Part shown: positions 31,901-42,153 of the stretch, piece after piece | How positions within the stretch are numbered: the stretch's first letter is position 1 | How the letters are laid out: each line of letters starts with the position of its first letter | Assembly: GCF_038025025.1 (NCBI RefSeq) | Contig: NW_027117343.1 | Span: forward strand, 124,001-188,000 | Direction of reading: 5' to 3' | DNA from: Phyllosticta citribraziliensis | Taxonomy: Eukaryota | DNA length: 64,000 nucleotides | Made by a program: the position numbers and the translations under genes | The notes under the pieces: generated by a model | What the model saw: the letters and a program-made list of their open reading frames with translations, nothing else | The model's database searches: none | Told to the model about the DNA's origin: nothing

Positions 31901-32353
31901 GTATGGCTGCCGTAATTCTCACCCTCCCTCTAAGCCCGTGACGTTGATATATTCGCGCCCGCCCGATCGGCTCCAGACGCTTCATTTCCCCCCTCCGTTC
32001 CAATTGATCCAGCTTCAGGTCTCTCCCTTCCCAGACCTGTCCTGAACCCTTCCCTCGTCCTTCCCCAGAGCCCATCAGAGAGGGCCCACCTCCAGTCCAG
32101 CACCGCAGCTTCCTCTGCCTCTCCGCTGCCTGCCCGCGTCTGCCACTCTGCTGTCACGCACCACACGATACTTCCTCTCCTCTCACTCCGCAGACATCTT
32201 CCCTCTATACCCCGTTCTGCTTTTCATCTACTGCGGCGTTTCCGAGCATCGACTTGTACACATTAGACGCTACATCCCGGCTTGAATCTCGCCGAGTCCC
32301 TCCCTCCTCCGCTCAACTCCTGCCCAACAACTCCTCTCCCGAAACATCTCTCA

Positions 32354-35300
32354 ATGGGCCTCTCCGCAGACATGGCCGACTCAAACGGCACCAACGGCCA
32401 CAGCAATGGCGCCCCCAGCTCCTACGCCGCGAGGCACGACATTCACTCGCACTTCATCGGAGGCAGCCACCTGAACGCCGCCCCTCCGAGCAAGGTCAAG
32501 GACTTTGTCGCCGCTCACGACGGTCACACCGTCATCACCAACGTGGGTTTGCCCGCCAGCTCTTATTCCCGCTGAAATCTCGCTAACCCCGCCACTCCCC
32601 AGGTTCTCATCGCGAACAACGGTATCGCAGCCGTCAAGGAAATCAGATCGGTGCGAAAATGGGCATACGAGACGTTTGGCGACGAGCGCGCCATCCAGTT
32701 CACCGTCATGGCCACGCCTGAGGATTTGCAGGCAAACGCAGACTACATTAGGATGGCCGACCAGTATGTTGAGGTACGTCGAACCCCAGAAAAATCTGGC
32801 TGGCCCCGCTCTCTAACCCCACCCAGGTCCCGGGAGGAACCAACAACAACAACTACGCCAACGTCGAGCTCATTGTCGATGTTGCCGAGCGTATGGACGT
32901 CCACGCCGTGTGGGCTGGCTGGGGTCACGCCTCCGAAAACCCAAAGCTCCCCGAATCGCTCGCCGCATCACCCAAGAAGATTGTCTTCATCGGTCCCCCA
33001 GGCTCCGCCATGCGCTCGCTGGGTGACAAGATTTCCTCGACCATCGTCGCACAACACGCCCAAGTCCCCTGCATACCGTGGTCGGGTACTGGAGTCGACG
33101 ATGTCATAATTGACGACAAGGGAATCGTCACGGTTGAGGATGAGATCTACAACAAGGGTTGCGTGCAGTCGCCCGAAGAGGGTCTTGAGGCGGCCAAGAA
33201 GATTGGCTTCCCCGTCATGATCAAGGCCTCTGAGGGTGGCGGTGGAAAGGGTATCCGCAAGGTCGAGTCGGAAGAAAACTTTGTCCAATTGTACCGCGCT
33301 GCTGCGAGCGAAATTCCCGGCTCGCCCATCTTCATCATGAAGCTGGCCGGCAACGCGCGTCACTTGGAGGTCCAGCTTCTTGCTGACCAGTACGGCAACA
33401 ACATCTCCCTCTTTGGCAGAGATTGTTCCGTCCAGCGTCGGCACCAGAAGATTATCGAGGAGGCTCCCGTTACGATTGCCAACCCGGAAACGTTCCAAAA
33501 GATGGAGAAGTCAGCAGTGGCGCTGGGTAAATTGGTCGGCTACGTCTCTGCGGGTACGGTGGAATACCTGTACTCGCACGAAGACGATGCTTTCTATTTC
33601 TTGGAACTCAACCCCCGTCTCCAGGTCGAACATCCGACCACCGAGATGGTGTCTGGCGTCAACTTGCCCGCGGCACAGCTGCAGGTTGCCATGGGTCTGC
33701 CTCTGCACCGCATCCGCGACATTCGTCTCCTCTACGGCGTCGACCCCCACTCGGCCACCGAGATCGACTTTGACTTTTCGACCGAGGACGCTCTCGTCAA
33801 CCAGAGGAAGCCCAAGCCCAAGGGTCACACCACGGCTTGCCGCATCACCTCCGAAGACCCCGGCGAAGGCTTCAAGCCGTCGAGCGGTACCATGCACGAG
33901 CTGAACTTTAGGAGCAGCTCCAATGTCTGGGGTTACTTCTCCGTCGGTACTGCTGGTGGTATCCACAGCTACTCTGACAGTCAGTTTGGTCACATTTTCG
34001 CCTACGGCGAGAACCGCTCCGCCTCGAGGAAGCACATGGTCGTCGCTCTCAAGGAGCTGAGCATTCGTGGTGACTTTAGGACAACCGTCGAGTACTTGAT
34101 CAAGCTTCTGGAGACGCCTGCTTTCGAGGACAACACCATTACCACTGGCTGGCTGGACGAGCTGATTTCCAAGAAGCTCACCGCAGAGAGACCCGACCCC
34201 ATGGTCGCCGTCATTTGCGGTGCTGTCCAAAAGGCCTGGGGTGCCAGCGAGGCGTGCATTGCCGAGTACAAGCAGAGCTTGGAGAAGGGTCAGATTCCTT
34301 CCAAGGATGTCCTCAAGACCGTCTTCCCCATCGACTTCATCTACGAGGGCTTCCGCTACAAGTTCACGGCGACCCGTTCGAGCGCCGATGCTTTTACCCT
34401 CTTCATCAACGGTTCGAGGTGCCAAGTCGGCGTCCGTGCCCTGGCTGACGGTGGTCTGCTCGTGCTGTTGAGCGGCAAGTCTCACAACGTCTACTGGAAG
34501 GAGGAAGTCGGCGCCACTCGTCTCTCTGTCGACAGCAAGACTTGCTTGCTCGAGCAGGAGAACGACCCCACTCAGCTCAGGGCGCCCACCCCCGGCAAGC
34601 TCGTCAAGTTCACCGTCGCCAACGGCGAGCACATCAAGCAGGGCCAGACCTATGCCGAGATCGAGGTCATGAAGATGTACATGCCTCTTTACGCGCAAGA
34701 GGACGGTGTGGTCAACCTCATCAAGCAGCCGGGTGCGACTCTCGAGGCCGGTGACATAGTAGGAATCCTCGCGCTTGACGACCCGTCCAAGGTCAAGTCC
34801 GCCCAGCTCTTCCTTGGCCAGCTCCCCATCTACGGCCCTCCTCAAGTCATGGGTTCCAAGGCGCCGCAGCGCTTCAGCTACCTTTACAACATCCTTTCGG
34901 ACATTCTCAAGGGCTTTGACAACCAGGTCATTATGCTCGACACTCTGAGGGAGCTTATCAATGTTCTGCGCGATCAAGAGCTTCCTTTTGGCCAGTGGAA
35001 CGCTCAAGCTTCTGCCCTCCACGCCCGCATGCCGCAAAAGCTCGACTCTGCCCTGGCGCAGATTGTCGAACGGGCGCACAGCCGTGGTGTCGAGTTCCCG
35101 GCCAAGCAGCTCATCAAGGCTTTCAACCGCTTCTTGGAAGACAACGTGGAGCCCGGTGACGCTGACCTCTTGCGCAGCTCCCTTGCCCCACTGATCGACG
35201 TTGCCAACATATACCTCGACGGCCTCAAGGTTCACGAGTACTCGGTCATGATCAGGCTCATCGAGCAGTACTCCAGCGTCGAGTCGCTCTTCTCCACGCG

Positions 35301-38300
35301 CCAGAACAGGGACGATGAGGTTATCCTCAAGCTCAGGGACGAGAACAAGGAGAACCTGGTCAGCGTCGTCTACACTGTCCTCTCGCACACTCGCGTGCAG
35401 TCGAAGAGCAACCTCGTTCTGGCCATTCTCGACTCGTACAAGCCCAACAAGCCCGGCGTTGGCAACGTCGCCAAGTACTTTAAGAACGTCCTGCGCAAGC
35501 TGACGGAGCTCGAGTCGAGAGCCACTGCCAAGGTCGCCGTCAAGGCCCGCGAGGTCCTCATCCAGTGCGCCATGCCTTCGCTGGAGGAGCGCACTTCGCA
35601 AATGGAGCACATTCTGCGCTCCGCCGTTGTCGAGTCCAAGTACGGCGAGTCTGGCTTTGAGCACCGCGAGCCCGACTTTGAAATCATCAAGGAGGTCGTC
35701 GACTCCAAGTACACCGTTTTCGATGTGCTTCCTCAGTTCTTTGCTCACGGTGACCCCTACGTCGCCCTGGCTGCTCTCGAGGTCTACACTCGCCGTGCTT
35801 ACCGTGCGTACTCGCTCAAGCAGATTGACTACCACATTGAGACGGAGCCTCCTTACGTCCTCTCCTGGGACTTTGCCCTGCGCAAGGTTGGCGAGTCCGA
35901 ATTTGGTCTGCCCATCGAGTCGTCTCACCCTTCTACTCCCGGCACCCCGGCCACCGAGATCTCAGCCTTTGGCTCGAAGCGCGTCCACTCTATTAGCGAT
36001 ATGAGCTACTTGTCCCGCCGTACCGAGGGCGAGCCTACCCGCAAGGGCGCGGTCGTGCCAATCCCTTTCATCGAGGACGCCGAGGAGTACCTCATCCGTG
36101 CTCTGGACGCCTTCCCCATCTATGGCAATGGCAAGAAGAGGCAGTCGAGTGGTAACAACGCCGGTCTCCTCGCCGATCTGTCTAACAAACGCCGGCCCAC
36201 CACCCCTGGTGCTAAGGACACTGATGAGGAACTCACTGCCGTCTGCAACATTGCCGTTCGCGACGCTGAGAGCTTCGACGACAAGGAGATTCTCGCCCGC
36301 ATCCAGCCCATTGTCAACGACTTCAAGGACGAGTTCCTTGCAAGGCGCGTGCGCCGTGTGACGTTCATCTGCGGCCACAAGGACGGTACCTACCCCGGCT
36401 ACTACACGTTCCGTGGACCCACCTACGAGGAGGACAGCAGCATTCGTCACATTGAGCCTGCGTTGGCCTTCCAGCTCGAGCTTGGCCGACTTAACAAGTT
36501 CCACATCAAGCCCGTCTTCACCGAGAACCGCAACATTCACATCTACGAGGCTGTTGGCAAGGGTGCTGAGAACGACAAGCGCTACTTCACGAGGGCTGTC
36601 GTCCGTCCTGGCCGCCTGCGGGAGGGTATCCCCACGGTCGAGTTCTTGGTTTCCGAGGCCGACAGGCTCATGAACGACATTCTCGACGCTCTCGAGATTA
36701 TTGGTAACAACAACTCGGACATGAACCACATCTTCATCAACTTCTCGACCGTCTTCCCCATGCAGCCCGCTGATGTCCAGGAGGCCCTCGGCGGCTTCTT
36801 GGACCGCTTCGGTCGCCGCGCCTGGAGGCTCCGCGTCACTGGTGCCGAGATTCGCATAGTCTGCACCGACGAGAATGGCATGCCCTACCCGCTCCGCGTC
36901 GTCATCACTAACACCGCTGGCTACGTTGTTGACGTCGAGCTGTATGCCGAGAAGAAGTCGGAGAAGGGCGGCCAGTGGCTCTTCCACAGCATTGGCGGCA
37001 CGACCAAGATTGGCTCGATGCACCTGCGTCCCGTCTCGACTCCCTACCCGACCAAGGGCGCCCTCCAGCCCAAGCGTTACAAGGCCCACATCATGGGCAC
37101 GCAGTACGTCTACGACTTCCCTGAGCTCTTCCGCCAGGCGGTCGAGAACAGCTGGACCGAGATGACTTCCAAGGCTCCTCATCTTAAGGAGAAGCAGCCC
37201 GTCAAGGGCGAGTGCATCGAGTACAGCGAGCTCGTCCTCGACGAGTACGACAACCTCGCCGAAGTCAACCGCGAGCCTGGTGCCAACAACATTGGCATGG
37301 TTGGTTGGATCGTCACGGCCAAGACTCCCGAGTACCCCAGGGGCCGTCGCTTCATCATCATTGCCAACGACATTACCTTCAAGATTGGTTCCTTTGGCCC
37401 GCTGGAGGACAAGTTCTTCCACAAGTGCTCGGAGCTGGCCCGCAAGATGGGTATTCCTCGCATCTACCTCTCCGCCAACTCTGGTGCGCGCATCGGCATG
37501 GCCGAGGAACTCATCCCCCACTTTTCCGTCGCGTGGAACGACCCGGAGAACCAGCAAATGGGCTTCAAGTACCTGTACCTCACTGAGGAGAAGAAGAAGC
37601 TGTTTGAGGACGGTGGCCGTAAGGATGTCATCACCGAGCCGATCAAGGAGGACGGCGAGACGAGGCACAAGATTACCACCATCGTGGGTGCCGAGGATGG
37701 CCTTGGTGTCGAGTGTCTGCGCGGCTCCGGTCTCATTGCCGGTGAGACCAGCAGGGCCTACGAAGACATCTTCACCATCACCCTGGTCACTTGCCGTTCC
37801 GTCGGTATCGGTGCCTACCTCGTCCGCCTTGGACAGCGTGCCATTCAGATTGAGGGCCAGCCCATCATCCTGACTGGCGCCCCTGCCATCAACAAGCTGC
37901 TCGGTCGCGAAGTCTACACCTCCAACCTGCAACTCGGCGGCACTCAAATCATGTACAGGAACGGTGTCTCGCACATGACTGCCTCTGATGACTTTGAGGG
38001 TGTGTCCAAGATTGTCCGCTGGATGGCGTACGTTCCCGAGAAGAAGGGCCAGCCAGTGCCCATCTCGCTCGCATCTGAGAGCTGGGACCGCGACATTACC
38101 TACTTCCCGCCCCAGAAGCAGCCTTACGATGTCAGATGGTTGATTGCCGGTAAGGAGGACGACGAAGGCTTCCTGTCTGGTCTGTTTGACCGCGGCTCCT
38201 TTGAGGAGGCGCTCGGCGGCTGGGCGAGGACCGTCGTCACCGGTCGTGCTCGCCTTGGTGGCATCCCCGTTGGTGTCATTGGCGTCGAGACTCGCTCCGT

Positions 38301-39345
38301 CGAGAACGTCACCCCTGCCGACCCTGCCAACCCCGACTCGATCGAGCAAGTCACCTCCGAGGCTGGTGGTGTCTGGTACCCCAACTCGGCGTACAAGACT
38401 GCCCAGGCGATCCGCGACTTCAACAACGGCGAGCAGCTTCCTCTCTTCATCCTTGCCAACTGGCGTGGTTTCTCTGGTGGCCAGCGCGACATGTTCAACG
38501 AGGTCCTCAAGTACGGTTCGTACATTGTCGACGCTCTCGTCAAGTACGAGCAGCCCGTCTTCGTCTACATCCCGCCCTTTGGCGAGCTCCGTGGTGGCTC
38601 GTGGGTCGTCGTCGACCCGACCATCAACCCGACGTTCATGGAGATGTACGCCGACGAGGATTCGCGCGGTGGTGTTCTCGAGCCCGAGGGTATCGTCGGC
38701 ATCAAGTTCCGCAAGGAGCGCCAGCTCGAGACCATGGCCCGCCTCGACACCGTCTACGGCGACCTTAAGAAGAAGTTTGCGGCCACTACGGACAAGGCCG
38801 AACAGGAGAAGATCAAGGCCGAGATGACCAAGCGCGAGCAGCTGCTGCTGCCCGTCTACGCCCAAATCTCGCTCCAGTTTGCCGACCTGCACGACCGCGC
38901 CGGCCGCATGGAGGCCAAGGGCGCCATTCGCAAGCCTCTGCAGTGGATCAACGCGCGCCGCTTCTTCTACTGGCGTCTGCGCCGCCGTCTCAACGAGGAG
39001 TACATCCTCAAGCGCGTCGTCTCGCCCTCGCCCATCTCAACGCCTGCCAACACGACGGCGCCCACCTCTGCCGTCACCCGCGAGGCGCTCCTCGAGCACC
39101 TGCGCGCGTGGTCCAACGTCGCCGACTTCGACTTCGACGACCGGTCGGTGGCGCAGTGGTACGAGCAGGCCAAGGCGGAGATCTCGGCCAAGACGGACGT
39201 GCTGCGCAAGGAGCGCGTCATCGAGGACGTCAAGACGCTGTTCAGCCGCGACCGCGAGGCCAGTCTCAAGGGCGTGCGCGAGATGCTCGAGACGCTGCCG
39301 ACGGGCGAGAAGGAGCTTGTCCTGAAGAGTCTGCTCAGCGCTTAG
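32354..39345 (+). CDS. ACC1: Acetyl-CoA carboxylase (BC-BCCP-CT multidomain), 3 exons; start at ATG 32354 or 32372
   Basis: [42 protein letters not shown], biotinylation motif EVMKM, CT motifs ANSGARIG and ANWRGFSGG. Introns 32543-32602 and 32774-32826. Confidence 0.99.
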
Positions 39346-39732
39346 AAGGCTCTCACAGGTGGTGGGGGAGGAGGCGGAGGCGCGTCGACGTCGTCGGCGG
39401 CGAGTCATAGCTCGGCCCACTCGTTCAAAACTGCGCTGGAGGGCGACGATGCGCAATCTTTCGCTACTGCGCTCGAGACTTTGGGGGTCAGGGAGGAGGC
39501 GGTGGAGGATGATGAACACACGACTGAGGAGAATGCAAATGGGAATGGGAATGGCAATGCAAGCGAAAATGCCTCGGACGGGAGCCTCGAGGCTGTGGAT
39601 ACAGAAGAAGCTCAGGCTGAGGAACAGGAACAGCAAGGGGAGGCCATTGCAACTGCCGCGGCAAATTCTGTCGTTGATGCGAATGCGAATGGGAATGGGA
39701 ACGAAACTGAAGCTGATATGCCCGGCGGTTAG
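39346..39732 (+). other. 128-codon open frame directly in frame behind the ACC1 UAG stop (candidate readthrough extension)
   Basis: GCT TAG AAG GCT CTC ... continues without a stop to TAG 39730-39732: KALTGGGGGGGGASTSSAASHSSAHSFKTALEGDDAQSFATALETLGVREEAVEDDEH...DMPGG. Confidence 0.6.
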
Positions 39733-41220
39733 AATCCGCCCGAGGCCGGCACTGATTGGGTTGTTTGGGATTAAGCAAGGAAGGGAGGTAGAGGGTCATT
39801 ACCGTTACTGTTGCTACCGCTACTGTTGTTTGTTAGAACTGGCTACTGCTACTGGTGGTTGCTTGTCTTCTTCTTTTGTGGGCAGTAGTCTTCTGGACAG
39901 TGTTACTGTTGAACAGTTGCTATACGAGGTTTCTTCATCGTTGCTTATGCTTCTTCTGCTCTGGGATTGCGCTTGTTGTGCTGTTATGTATGTATATGGC
40001 AGAGGACCACGCAATGCAATGCAATAGACAATGCGACATTGACCTTTGCGGAATGGTGGTGGTGGTGTTGCTGTTGTCGTAGCTGTTCAACTATCCAACT
40101 ATCTATATCCATATCTCCATTGCGCTGCTCGCTCTTCACATGCCCATGCCGTTGGCGGAGCGCTCGACCACGGACGCTACGGTACGGTACTGCCCTGCCC
40201 GACCGCAAAACTACCCGTACTCTGTGGTCGCCATCCCTACGCCACAGCATATCCGCCCGCCCGCCGCTCACGCTGAGAGGAGAGAAAGGCGCGGTAGATA
40301 TCGTCAAACAGCCCAGCCCAGCCATCCGTCGCGTGAGACTGGCCCGGTACGGCCCGGCCCGGCCCGGCCCGGCCCGTAGACGACGGCGGCGAAAACGACA
40401 AGAGAGAGAGACAGGTGTAGTGGTGGGTGGTGCAGCCTCTCGGAGCGCGAAGAAGAGAACAAGAAAACCGCGGAGCCAAGATGTCTTCACCTCGAAGCTC
40501 AAGGCCGTCCGAGAGAAGCTGGATAGCTTCACTGCCGGCCCTGCTGGAGTTGCTGGACACAAAATTGAAACGAGAGCAAGAGAGATGAATCCAACACAGG
40601 GGGGCCGCTTGTCAGCGCGCGCGATCGGGTGCGTCTGACGGCTCCAAGTCTCTCCGAAGTTGTCCACGCTCAGGTTCAGCGGCGCCGAAAGAGGTTTGCT
40701 GCTGGCCATGTCGACGTCGATTGGTTCGTCATGGACACGGTGCACCTTCGCCGTCGGTTTGGCCTCAACAGAGCGCATTCGCAGCTGAGCATGGCATGTC
40801 CGCGCTTGGATCCGAGGCTGCAGGCACTTGTTGCGCGCCCGGGGAGAGTTGATGCGGTGAATGGCTTCGAAAGAGGATCTGGGCTGTCGGTCAGTATTGG
40901 GCGATTTCGTGACAAACCGCGCAGGATCAGACAGGACCGTGTCGTCGAATTCCATTCACTGCTGCGTGGGGGCTTTCGTTGGCCACTGCAGCTAGATCGA
41001 GTGAGTATCTCTCTTTCGACGCTCACTGTGCAAGTTCATGGCGAGGCCAACGGCGATTGGTCACCGAGTTCTTCAACACGCAAGCTGTGGTGCTGGACTG
41101 TTCCAATGCTAGCTGAATCGCTCGTTGAGGGAGAAATGGAGGGTGTGTGGTGTTTGCTTCATATCGCAACTCGTTAATAGAAGAAAGAGAAATGGAGACG
41201 TGTTGGATGGAGAGAGACGA

Positions 41221-42153
41221 TCATTGCCGCTGATCCCACGAGCGCAACACCCAGTGGGAGAGCTTCGGTTGATAGCGAAGCTCGCAAGTCCCAACTTTCA
41301 AGATACAGAGATCGTGCAGCTGCCAGGCATCGGGCAACCATGTCAAGTGTCTATCGGATGGCCCGCACTCATCTAGATCGAAGCCGGTATCTGACAGAAA
41401 CGCAAAGCAACGCTCGAGGTGTTGTTTGTAGTCGCGGAACTCTCTCAAATCTTGGTGTTTGTCTTCGAACGTCAGGCTCTCGTGATGACAAAAAAGGACG
41501 TGTAATACGATGCTCCTTAGAATGACGTGGTCGTATAGCCATGTGTCGGCCTTGTGTGTTGCAGTAGGAATGAGCTTGAGAGCATCCAGGAACTCGGGCT
41601 TAGGCCAGGTGTCGAGGAAGATAGGACCGGACTTTGGGAAGAGGTCTTCTCTGAGTGCTGGTACCTGGTAAAAGTCCGCGACGGCCCACATACGGAAGAG
41701 AAACTTCATATCGGACGAGTCCTTTGGGACCTCACAGGATGAATAGTACATCCAGCGCAGCATGGCCTCGACAGCGACGGGATCTGCATGGCTCATCTGG
41801 ATTTCGGCGGTCGATTCCTGTCGTGACGTCAAAAAAGCCCTCATCAAGTGTGGACGAGATTTACCGCAGCAACCAGATCAGTTTCCAACGACTTCGTAAA
41901 AGCCTCACTAAATCCGCAAACGATGATCCTGTGCATTCGAAGCGTCTTTCCGCTGGGAGATTTGATGTTAAGGTCGCAGAAGAGGCCATGTTCGAACAAG
42001 CTGGATCGTTGCTGGTTAGTCCTGCCGTAGTCCTCAACTGCTGGTCGCAGCCGTAAACCGGGCTACTTGCTGCCGGAATTTCTGTCTGACGGGAATCAGA
42101 GGGGCCACGGTGGTCGGGCGATCTCCTGAGCTGGGACCACTTTCGGCAGACAT
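41221..42153 (-). CDS. BTB/POZ-domain protein, 3 exons
   Basis: MSAES...FRQQVAR/LFEHGLFCDLNIKSPSGKTLRMHRIIVCGFSEAFTKSLE.../ESTAEIQMSHADPVAVEAMLRWMY...MWAVADFYQVPAL. Introns 42001-42058 (weak GTTTAC donor) and 41818-41864. Confidence 0.78.

Follow-up and report, generated by a model that had tools for sequence, protein, structure and literature searches.

The acetyl-CoA carboxylase gene (ACC1) of Phyllosticta citribraziliensis is followed, directly behind its stop codon, by a long stretch in which the reading frame stays open. This raises the question whether the stretch is translated as a C-terminal extension of ACC, the enzyme that makes malonyl-CoA in the committed step of fatty-acid synthesis, or whether it is a 3' untranslated region (UTR) that mimics coding DNA. 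The original prediction had interpreted it as a candidate case of programmed readthrough. All positions given below refer to the whole stretch of DNA that was analysed, 64,000 nucleotides in length and henceforth called the window.

The ACC1 gene, recognized by its Pfam ACC domains, occupies positions 32372..39345 of the forward strand and contains two introns that can be read from the sequence (32543-32602 and 32774-32826), each with a CTAAC branch site. Translation from the ATG at 32372 yields a product of 2286 aa and from the in-frame ATG at 32354 one of 2292 aa; these two ATGs, 18 nt apart and both in frame, correspond to the 2286- and 2292-aa forms present in the databases, and the frame remains open for 29 additional codons 5' of both (32267-32374). 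The predicted protein is identical at 2160 of 2160 compared residues to sequences named as ACC of P. citribraziliensis (P0125/P0131), and it shows 99.2% identity to its counterpart in P. citrichinensis, 95.5-95.7% to those of the citricarpa group and 93.2% to that of P. capitalensis. On the reverse strand the gene is accompanied by open frames of 816 codons (33511-35961) and 1024 codons (35962-39036) in register with ACC, which are shadows of C-ending ACC codons and not genes.

The normal stop codon is the TAG at 39343..39345 on the forward strand, in the context GCT-TAG-AAG (...CTC AGC GCT TAG), as assigned from the C-termini of homologs. Among the 120 homologs listed, of 1481 matches, 119 have their C-terminus no more than about two residues away from this stop by our inspection, the single exception being P0027, which is six residues longer, and all 13 members of the Phyllosticta cluster terminate in LLSA or LLNA. 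The C-terminal end of ACC is thus near residue-fixed across filamentous ascomycetes. In a sequencing run of the same species (RNA, according to the tool's guess) a single contig, X1, spans positions 39000-40334 with zero differences and zero joints, and retains the TAG. The homolog ends, the Phyllosticta ends and X1 together rule out a premature nonsense codon or a sequencing error at 39343-45, and since the stop sits at the conserved end of ACC, the gene is not a truncated version of a longer ACC. In Macrophomina phaseolina we observed, in addition to the normal ACC (P0134), two extra divergent ACCs (P0027 and P0152) with equally long contigs and a C-terminus extended by six residues.

Behind the stop, the predicted open frame of 128 codons was confirmed in coordinates and frame: the candidate extension is stop-free from 39346 up to a second TAG at 39730-32, and thus spans 39346..39732 on the forward strand. 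It begins with a Gly/Ser linker that opens with eight consecutive Gly codons (GGN at 39358..39381, with the third base alone variable), followed at 39415..39477 by a tandem duplicate (AHSFKTALE and AQSFATALE, 36-nt spacing), which contains the HSFKTALE/QSFATALE pair noticed earlier and for which helices are predicted with low confidence. Further downstream, positions 39529..39711 contain the Asn-Gly repeat NANGNGN twice, at a distance of 144 nt, and between the two copies lies a predicted helix rich in Glu, Ala and Gln (about 39601-39681, pLDDT 72-79); the acidic Asn-Gly tail is therefore as first described, except that the sequence ENANGNGNGN, said to occur twice, is present in a single copy, the second repeat reading DANANGNGNE. 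The sole ATG is codon 125 of 128 and the C-terminus is MPGG, so that the earlier statements about the lack of an early AUG and of a PTS1 both hold. The product would carry a net charge of -23 and a GRAVY value of -0.78; its predicted peptides would include TALEGDDAQSFATALETLGVR, and a peptide spanning the stop would read SLLSA-x-K. Part of the extension (ALETL..GVREE) resembles the last helices of ACC itself, but an origin by duplication is not supported, as 320 of 2000 shuffled sequences score equally well.

The coding-like pattern described below continues beyond the second TAG to about codon 137-150, a feature overlooked in the original prediction. Past this TAG the frame runs on for 13 codons (NPPEAGTDWVVWD) until it meets a third stop, the TAA at 39772-74 (39733..39774 on the forward strand; codon 143). 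Read to this point, the 142-residue version of the tail would end in a short Trp motif, DWVVWD, and its terminal VVWD provides no PTS1 tripeptide either. The hexamer TTAGAA surrounds both TAGs and is found in 0.87% of TAG contexts, a comparison made post hoc. Probable 3'-end signals follow at 39985..40028 of the same strand (TATGTA at 39985, TGTATA at 39991 and AATAGA at 40023), according to the general consensus of yeast and fungal 3' ends, so the poly(A) site probably lies downstream of the extension. X1 ends at a run of GGCCC pentamers (40343-40376), and a convergent neighbor on the reverse strand (41221-41877), BTB/POZ-domain-like by eye, has no match in the flanks of 59 ACC loci of other fungi.

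An AlphaFold model calculated with the stops read through contains the ACC helices followed by a tail mostly below pLDDT 50, in which the SFxTALE repeats and the Glu/Ala stretch are helical. The model supports an extension predicted to be mostly disordered and nothing further; because of the low pLDDT and the lack of aligned relatives in the model, we draw no conclusion about docking.

The length of the open frame is only mildly unusual and constitutes weak evidence alone. When the bases were shuffled 20,000 times, the frame stayed free of stops in 0.39% of cases, and when dinucleotides were shuffled 20,000 times, in 1.8%. For comparison with real gene ends we used 864 kb of the genome, including the window, in which 126 ends of coding-like frames, less 37 probable introns, left 89 gene ends. 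At least 128 in-frame codons past the stop occur at eight of these; four are evidently interrupted by introns and one is ACC itself, which leaves 3 of 84 others, and a stricter set of 34 gene ends gives the same picture. Since these three ends match the extension, and since the antisense frame in register and the +1 frame (226 codons) are open as well, open length carries little weight.

A stronger signal comes from the composition of the codons. G occupies the first position in 58% of the codons of the extension, and its three-base periodicity (chi2 73-74) is close to that of the last 128 codons of ACC (76), with values of 2.6-9 in the UTR beyond. With a chi2 of 72.9 the extension ranks at the top of the 89 gene ends, the next being 67, from an intron-interrupted gene, and then 46; it also ranks at the top of 38 scorable fungal ACC1 ends, where the next value is 14.2. 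Of 8743 windows, 2677 contain no coding-like frame, and chi2 in these reaches at most 36.4, a comparison that is partly circular, as the filter masks the extension itself. Because open frames of this genome that are rich in G at the first position often look like antisense shadows of genes, strand and frame were compared: amino-acid usage is protein-like in the ACC frame only (+0.136 versus -0.11 and -0.17, and -0.10 in antisense). Mismatches between the internal duplicates of the extension fall at third positions in 9 of 14 cases (p=0.017). The choice of synonymous codons is not gene-like (term -0.15; GC3s 0.55 versus 0.79-0.93 in ACC), and the best change points of the periodicity lie at codons 137 and 150, i.e. 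8-21 codons past the second stop. Taken together, the stretch after the ACC1 stop is real and coding-like in the ACC frame, and so far restricted to Phyllosticta.

Comparison within the genus relied on four of 24 listed runs, namely X1, a close relative (X23, about 92-93% identity), a more distant congener (X14) and X3, which yielded no contig here, a result that does not imply absence of the extension. X23, a single contig with a depth of 9.6, aligns from the coding sequence to 39784 in two pieces. The net indels within its extension are +9 (10 inserted and 1 deleted, from mostly unlisted positions), +42 (50 letters for 8) and -15 (2 of the 15 bases may fall past the second stop), all of them multiples of three, while the first indel past the third stop is about +10 in a loose end realigned by eye. 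By net length, frame-disrupting indels, named in advance as evidence against the proposal if present in close relatives, seem to be absent from the X23 extension, a comparison that covers 3 of the 53 listed substitutions of X23 and all but seven of its indel rows. The frame of the extension therefore seems to be kept in one sister species, as judged by net indel lengths, with the caveat that repeats of 3n units also yield 3n indels under neutrality. The piece of X23 around 39733-39774 contains 7 substitutions in 124 aligned bases and is seemingly well kept.

The ACC end of X14 carries amino-acid changes identical to those of P0122, a protein named as P. capitalensis. Its identity falls below 80% right at the ACC1 stop, where the next bases are GAT versus AAG. 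The 30 visible bases behind this stop are stop-free in frame and read DANVERVLET, which is not significantly similar to DAQSFATALET of the extension (p=0.04-0.12, with similar values in control regions).

Outside the genus we analysed 59 metagenomic ACC loci of other fungi, 56 of which reach the C-terminus and represent 45 distinct 3' ends; Sordariomycetes are thinly represented and Neurospora is not included. The stops at these 45 ends are TAG in 25, TAA in 12 and TGA in 8, and the frame behind them remains open for a median of 10 codons and a maximum of 109, the latter non-periodic. At the 37 ends with enough flanking sequence chi2 does not exceed 14.2. SFxTALE, xLET and NGNGN motifs are absent within 700 nt of all 45 stops, and a comparable tail is found at none of them; the extension is therefore not conserved across filamentous ascomycetes, and the conservation across Pezizomycotina, for which SFxTALE had been proposed as a marker, breaks down outside the genus. 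The identity and context of the stop are not conserved among the 45 ends, nor is the context in X14 (GAT versus AAG). Two of the loci (L028 and L035, 72% identical in their ACC coding DNA) have a common block in the 3' UTR, GGAATTTGGCGATAAAGGC, which positions 39762-39780 of the window loosely resemble (noticed post hoc), and L035 possesses an 88-codon open frame past its TGA, partly acidic and non-periodic.

Searches for homologs of the extension were likewise negative. There was no significant match in the 59 fungal ACC loci (tblastn and blastn), or among longer proteins, proteins of similar length, 1.84 billion protein representatives, the ESM Atlas and Pfam. An exact look-up of three candidate products in a collection of 15 billion proteins gave no match, nor did a scan of a prokaryote collection, as expected. 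A search of the genome itself at DNA and protein level revealed no donor, the best other match having E=3.

How could such a stretch be translated? The stop context is UAG-AAG and not the classic UGA-CU(A) described in PMC4207609, as had been pointed out at the outset. No stable RNA structure better than in shuffled sequences was predicted around or after the ACC1 stop (four of four folds, z +1.5 to -1.2), and the stop region has no match in Rfam. Given the lack of a known context, fold or Rfam match, any readthrough would be low-level or would depend on an unknown signal. Of the original proposal, the coding-like in-frame stretch stands, and programmed readthrough is the leading candidate mechanism; a targeting signal, a recognised leaky context and conservation beyond the genus are not supported.

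The best reading, to which we assign a probability of roughly 0.4, is a low-level UAG readthrough restricted to Phyllosticta, which would append an acidic, mostly disordered tail that would be under weak selection. The majority of ribosomes would terminate at the UAG and produce normal ACC, and a minority would decode it with a near-cognate tRNA (giving Gln, Tyr or Lys, as known from work on yeast) and then add 128, possibly 142, residues. In the added tail, a Gly/Ser linker would provide flexibility and lead into a pair of short, amphipathic SFxTALE helices, followed by the acidic Asn-Gly/Glu-Ala part, with a net charge of -23. Since ACC is an abundant dimer, readthrough of about 1% would already give rise to a tailed sub-population, which could differ in localisation, assembly or stability. 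We infer translation of the extension, the readthrough route and any function alike. That ACC acquires a selected tail by some route, whichever it may be, has slightly better than even odds. A more specific version is improbable, namely that signal-less readthrough over one, perhaps two, UAGs in UUAGAA produces a 128- or 142-residue tail, recently arisen de novo and confined to the genus, which confers on ACC a localisation or assembly of its own.

Several explanations compete with this readthrough. The stretch may be a former exon of another disordered protein, which now resides in the ACC1 3' UTR, lies in frame by chance (one in three) and is no longer usefully translated. Such an origin would account for the periodicity and the third-position bias with no need for a readthrough signal, and it agrees with codons that are not optimised, with the rapid divergence in X14, and with the periodicity past the second TAG, as if this TAG were a later nonsense change. 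It is at odds with the frame apparently maintained through three indel events in X23 and with the failure to find a donor in the same genome or among the 1.84 billion representatives, although disordered donors are hard to recognize; we consider a relict exon unlikely, but the least unlikely of the alternatives. Somewhat less credible is a purine-rich neutral 3' UTR composed of decayed tri- and hexanucleotide repeats, in which the frame would be open owing to the low T content and the phase would be coincidental. T indeed amounts to just 16%, the +1 and antisense frames are open too, equally long open frames exist at the 3 of 84 other gene ends, and degenerate triplet runs are frequent here, whose slippage would lead to 3n indels. 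What speaks against neutrality is that, across about 400 nt, several distinct repeat blocks all hold G at the first codon position of the ACC frame, that the repeat-rich UTR downstream is non-periodic (chi2 2.6-9), that none of the 2677 non-coding windows exceeds the chi2 of 36.4, and that the duplicates exhibit the third-position bias.

The remaining explanations change the transcript or the gene model. A minor isoform might splice out a weak candidate cryptic intron of 72 nt (GTGCGC...TTAG, 39274..39345 on the forward strand), which ends on the AG of the stop, so that ACC would lose its stop together with its 23 terminal codons, in frame, and the extension would replace its last helix. The in-frame donor/acceptor pair and a length typical of fungal introns render this conceivable with no readthrough signal, and fungi produce cryptic C-termini through splicing as well as readthrough (PMC9549241). 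The candidate, however, has neither a CTRAY branch site nor a pyrimidine tract, unlike both real ACC introns, it would remove the conserved terminal helix, and X1 contains no corresponding joint (contigs drop rare forms), which makes it quite improbable. Even smaller is the chance that the stretch belongs to a separate small gene, be it a frame-0 ORF started at a near-cognate codon, an ATG-started +1 ORF (39449-40024) or an antisense gene of which the first-position G is the shadow. Most G1-rich stop-free frames of this genome do resemble such shadows, and the in-register antisense frame is open at 39037-39795 with a synonymous term of +0.12; its product, however, would be rich in Ile, Arg and Cys, un-protein-like in composition (-0.10) and devoid of an upstream ATG, the +1 product would be Arg-rich (-0.11), and none of the three candidate products occurs in the 15-billion protein collection. 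We regard it as the least probable of all that the stop is lost in the sexual stage through A-to-I editing (UAG to UGG), a route found in Sordariomycetes. The ACC1 stop, U-U-A-G-A-A-G, fits the Fusarium motif with 5 of 6 preferred bases, including U at -1 and purines at +1, +3 and +4 of the edited A (PMC9600606), TTAGAA is common to both TAGs, and edited stops have longer, disordered tails (PMC13123824). Stop-loss editing is reported from Sordariomycetes and Pyronema and needs the Ame1 residues MV500-501; the supplements of the same source contain 60 Dothideomycete rows and none from Phyllosticta (PMC11087585). All three DUF726 (Ame1-family) genes of this genome (G000:C5:1792117, C1:250451 and C3:1028061) lack MV and have AR, AK and SL at the equivalent position, as mapped by offset alone from the catalytic Ser with matching D+58 and H+98 spacing. 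X1 shows no A-to-G change (its tissue and stage are unspecified, and contigs drop minor variants), and a literature search found no report of A-to-I editing in Dothideomycetes.

If the extension is a relict or neutral, the lesson would be one of caution, since 3' UTRs in GC-rich fungi would then contain long, G-rich open frames that mimic readthrough. If it is a selected tail reached by readthrough, it would provide a clean example of coding sequence newly emerging downstream of a stop codon in a single genus.

Among known systems, readthrough of ACC is said to occur in Neurospora crassa, as mentioned in the original prediction; our literature searches, which covered few subscription journals, found no report of it. 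If real, it would involve the same enzyme and a C-terminal extension past the normal stop, and since the Phyllosticta extension has no counterpart at the 45 fungal ACC1 ends, the two would be independent. Among the closest relatives of the proposed mechanism are the cryptic peroxisomal isoforms produced by UGA-CU(A) readthrough, e.g. Tpi1 and Pgk1 of Ustilago maydis and human LDHB and MDH1 (Stiebler et al. 2014, PMC4207609, and the review PMC9549241). ACC1 shares with them the central metabolic enzyme and the in-frame extension past the normal stop, and differs by its UAG-AAG context, by 128 codons instead of a few, by the terminal MPGG without PTS1 and by its confinement to one genus. With the stop-loss editing of Sordariomycetes, exemplified by Fusarium DBF2, it has in common the TAG, an editing-friendly context and a long, disordered and poorly conserved tail, whereas the host is a Dothideomycete without an MV-type Ame1, the stop has no hairpin (z +1.5) and X1 shows no editing. 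The ACC1 extension thus falls outside the UGA-CU(A)/PTS1 class and outside fungal stop-loss editing. It matches functional readthrough in general by the position of the stop at a conserved protein end and by the long in-frame open frame behind it, and, if true, would represent a fungal readthrough case apart from peroxisomal targeting, via a UAG with no known leaky context.
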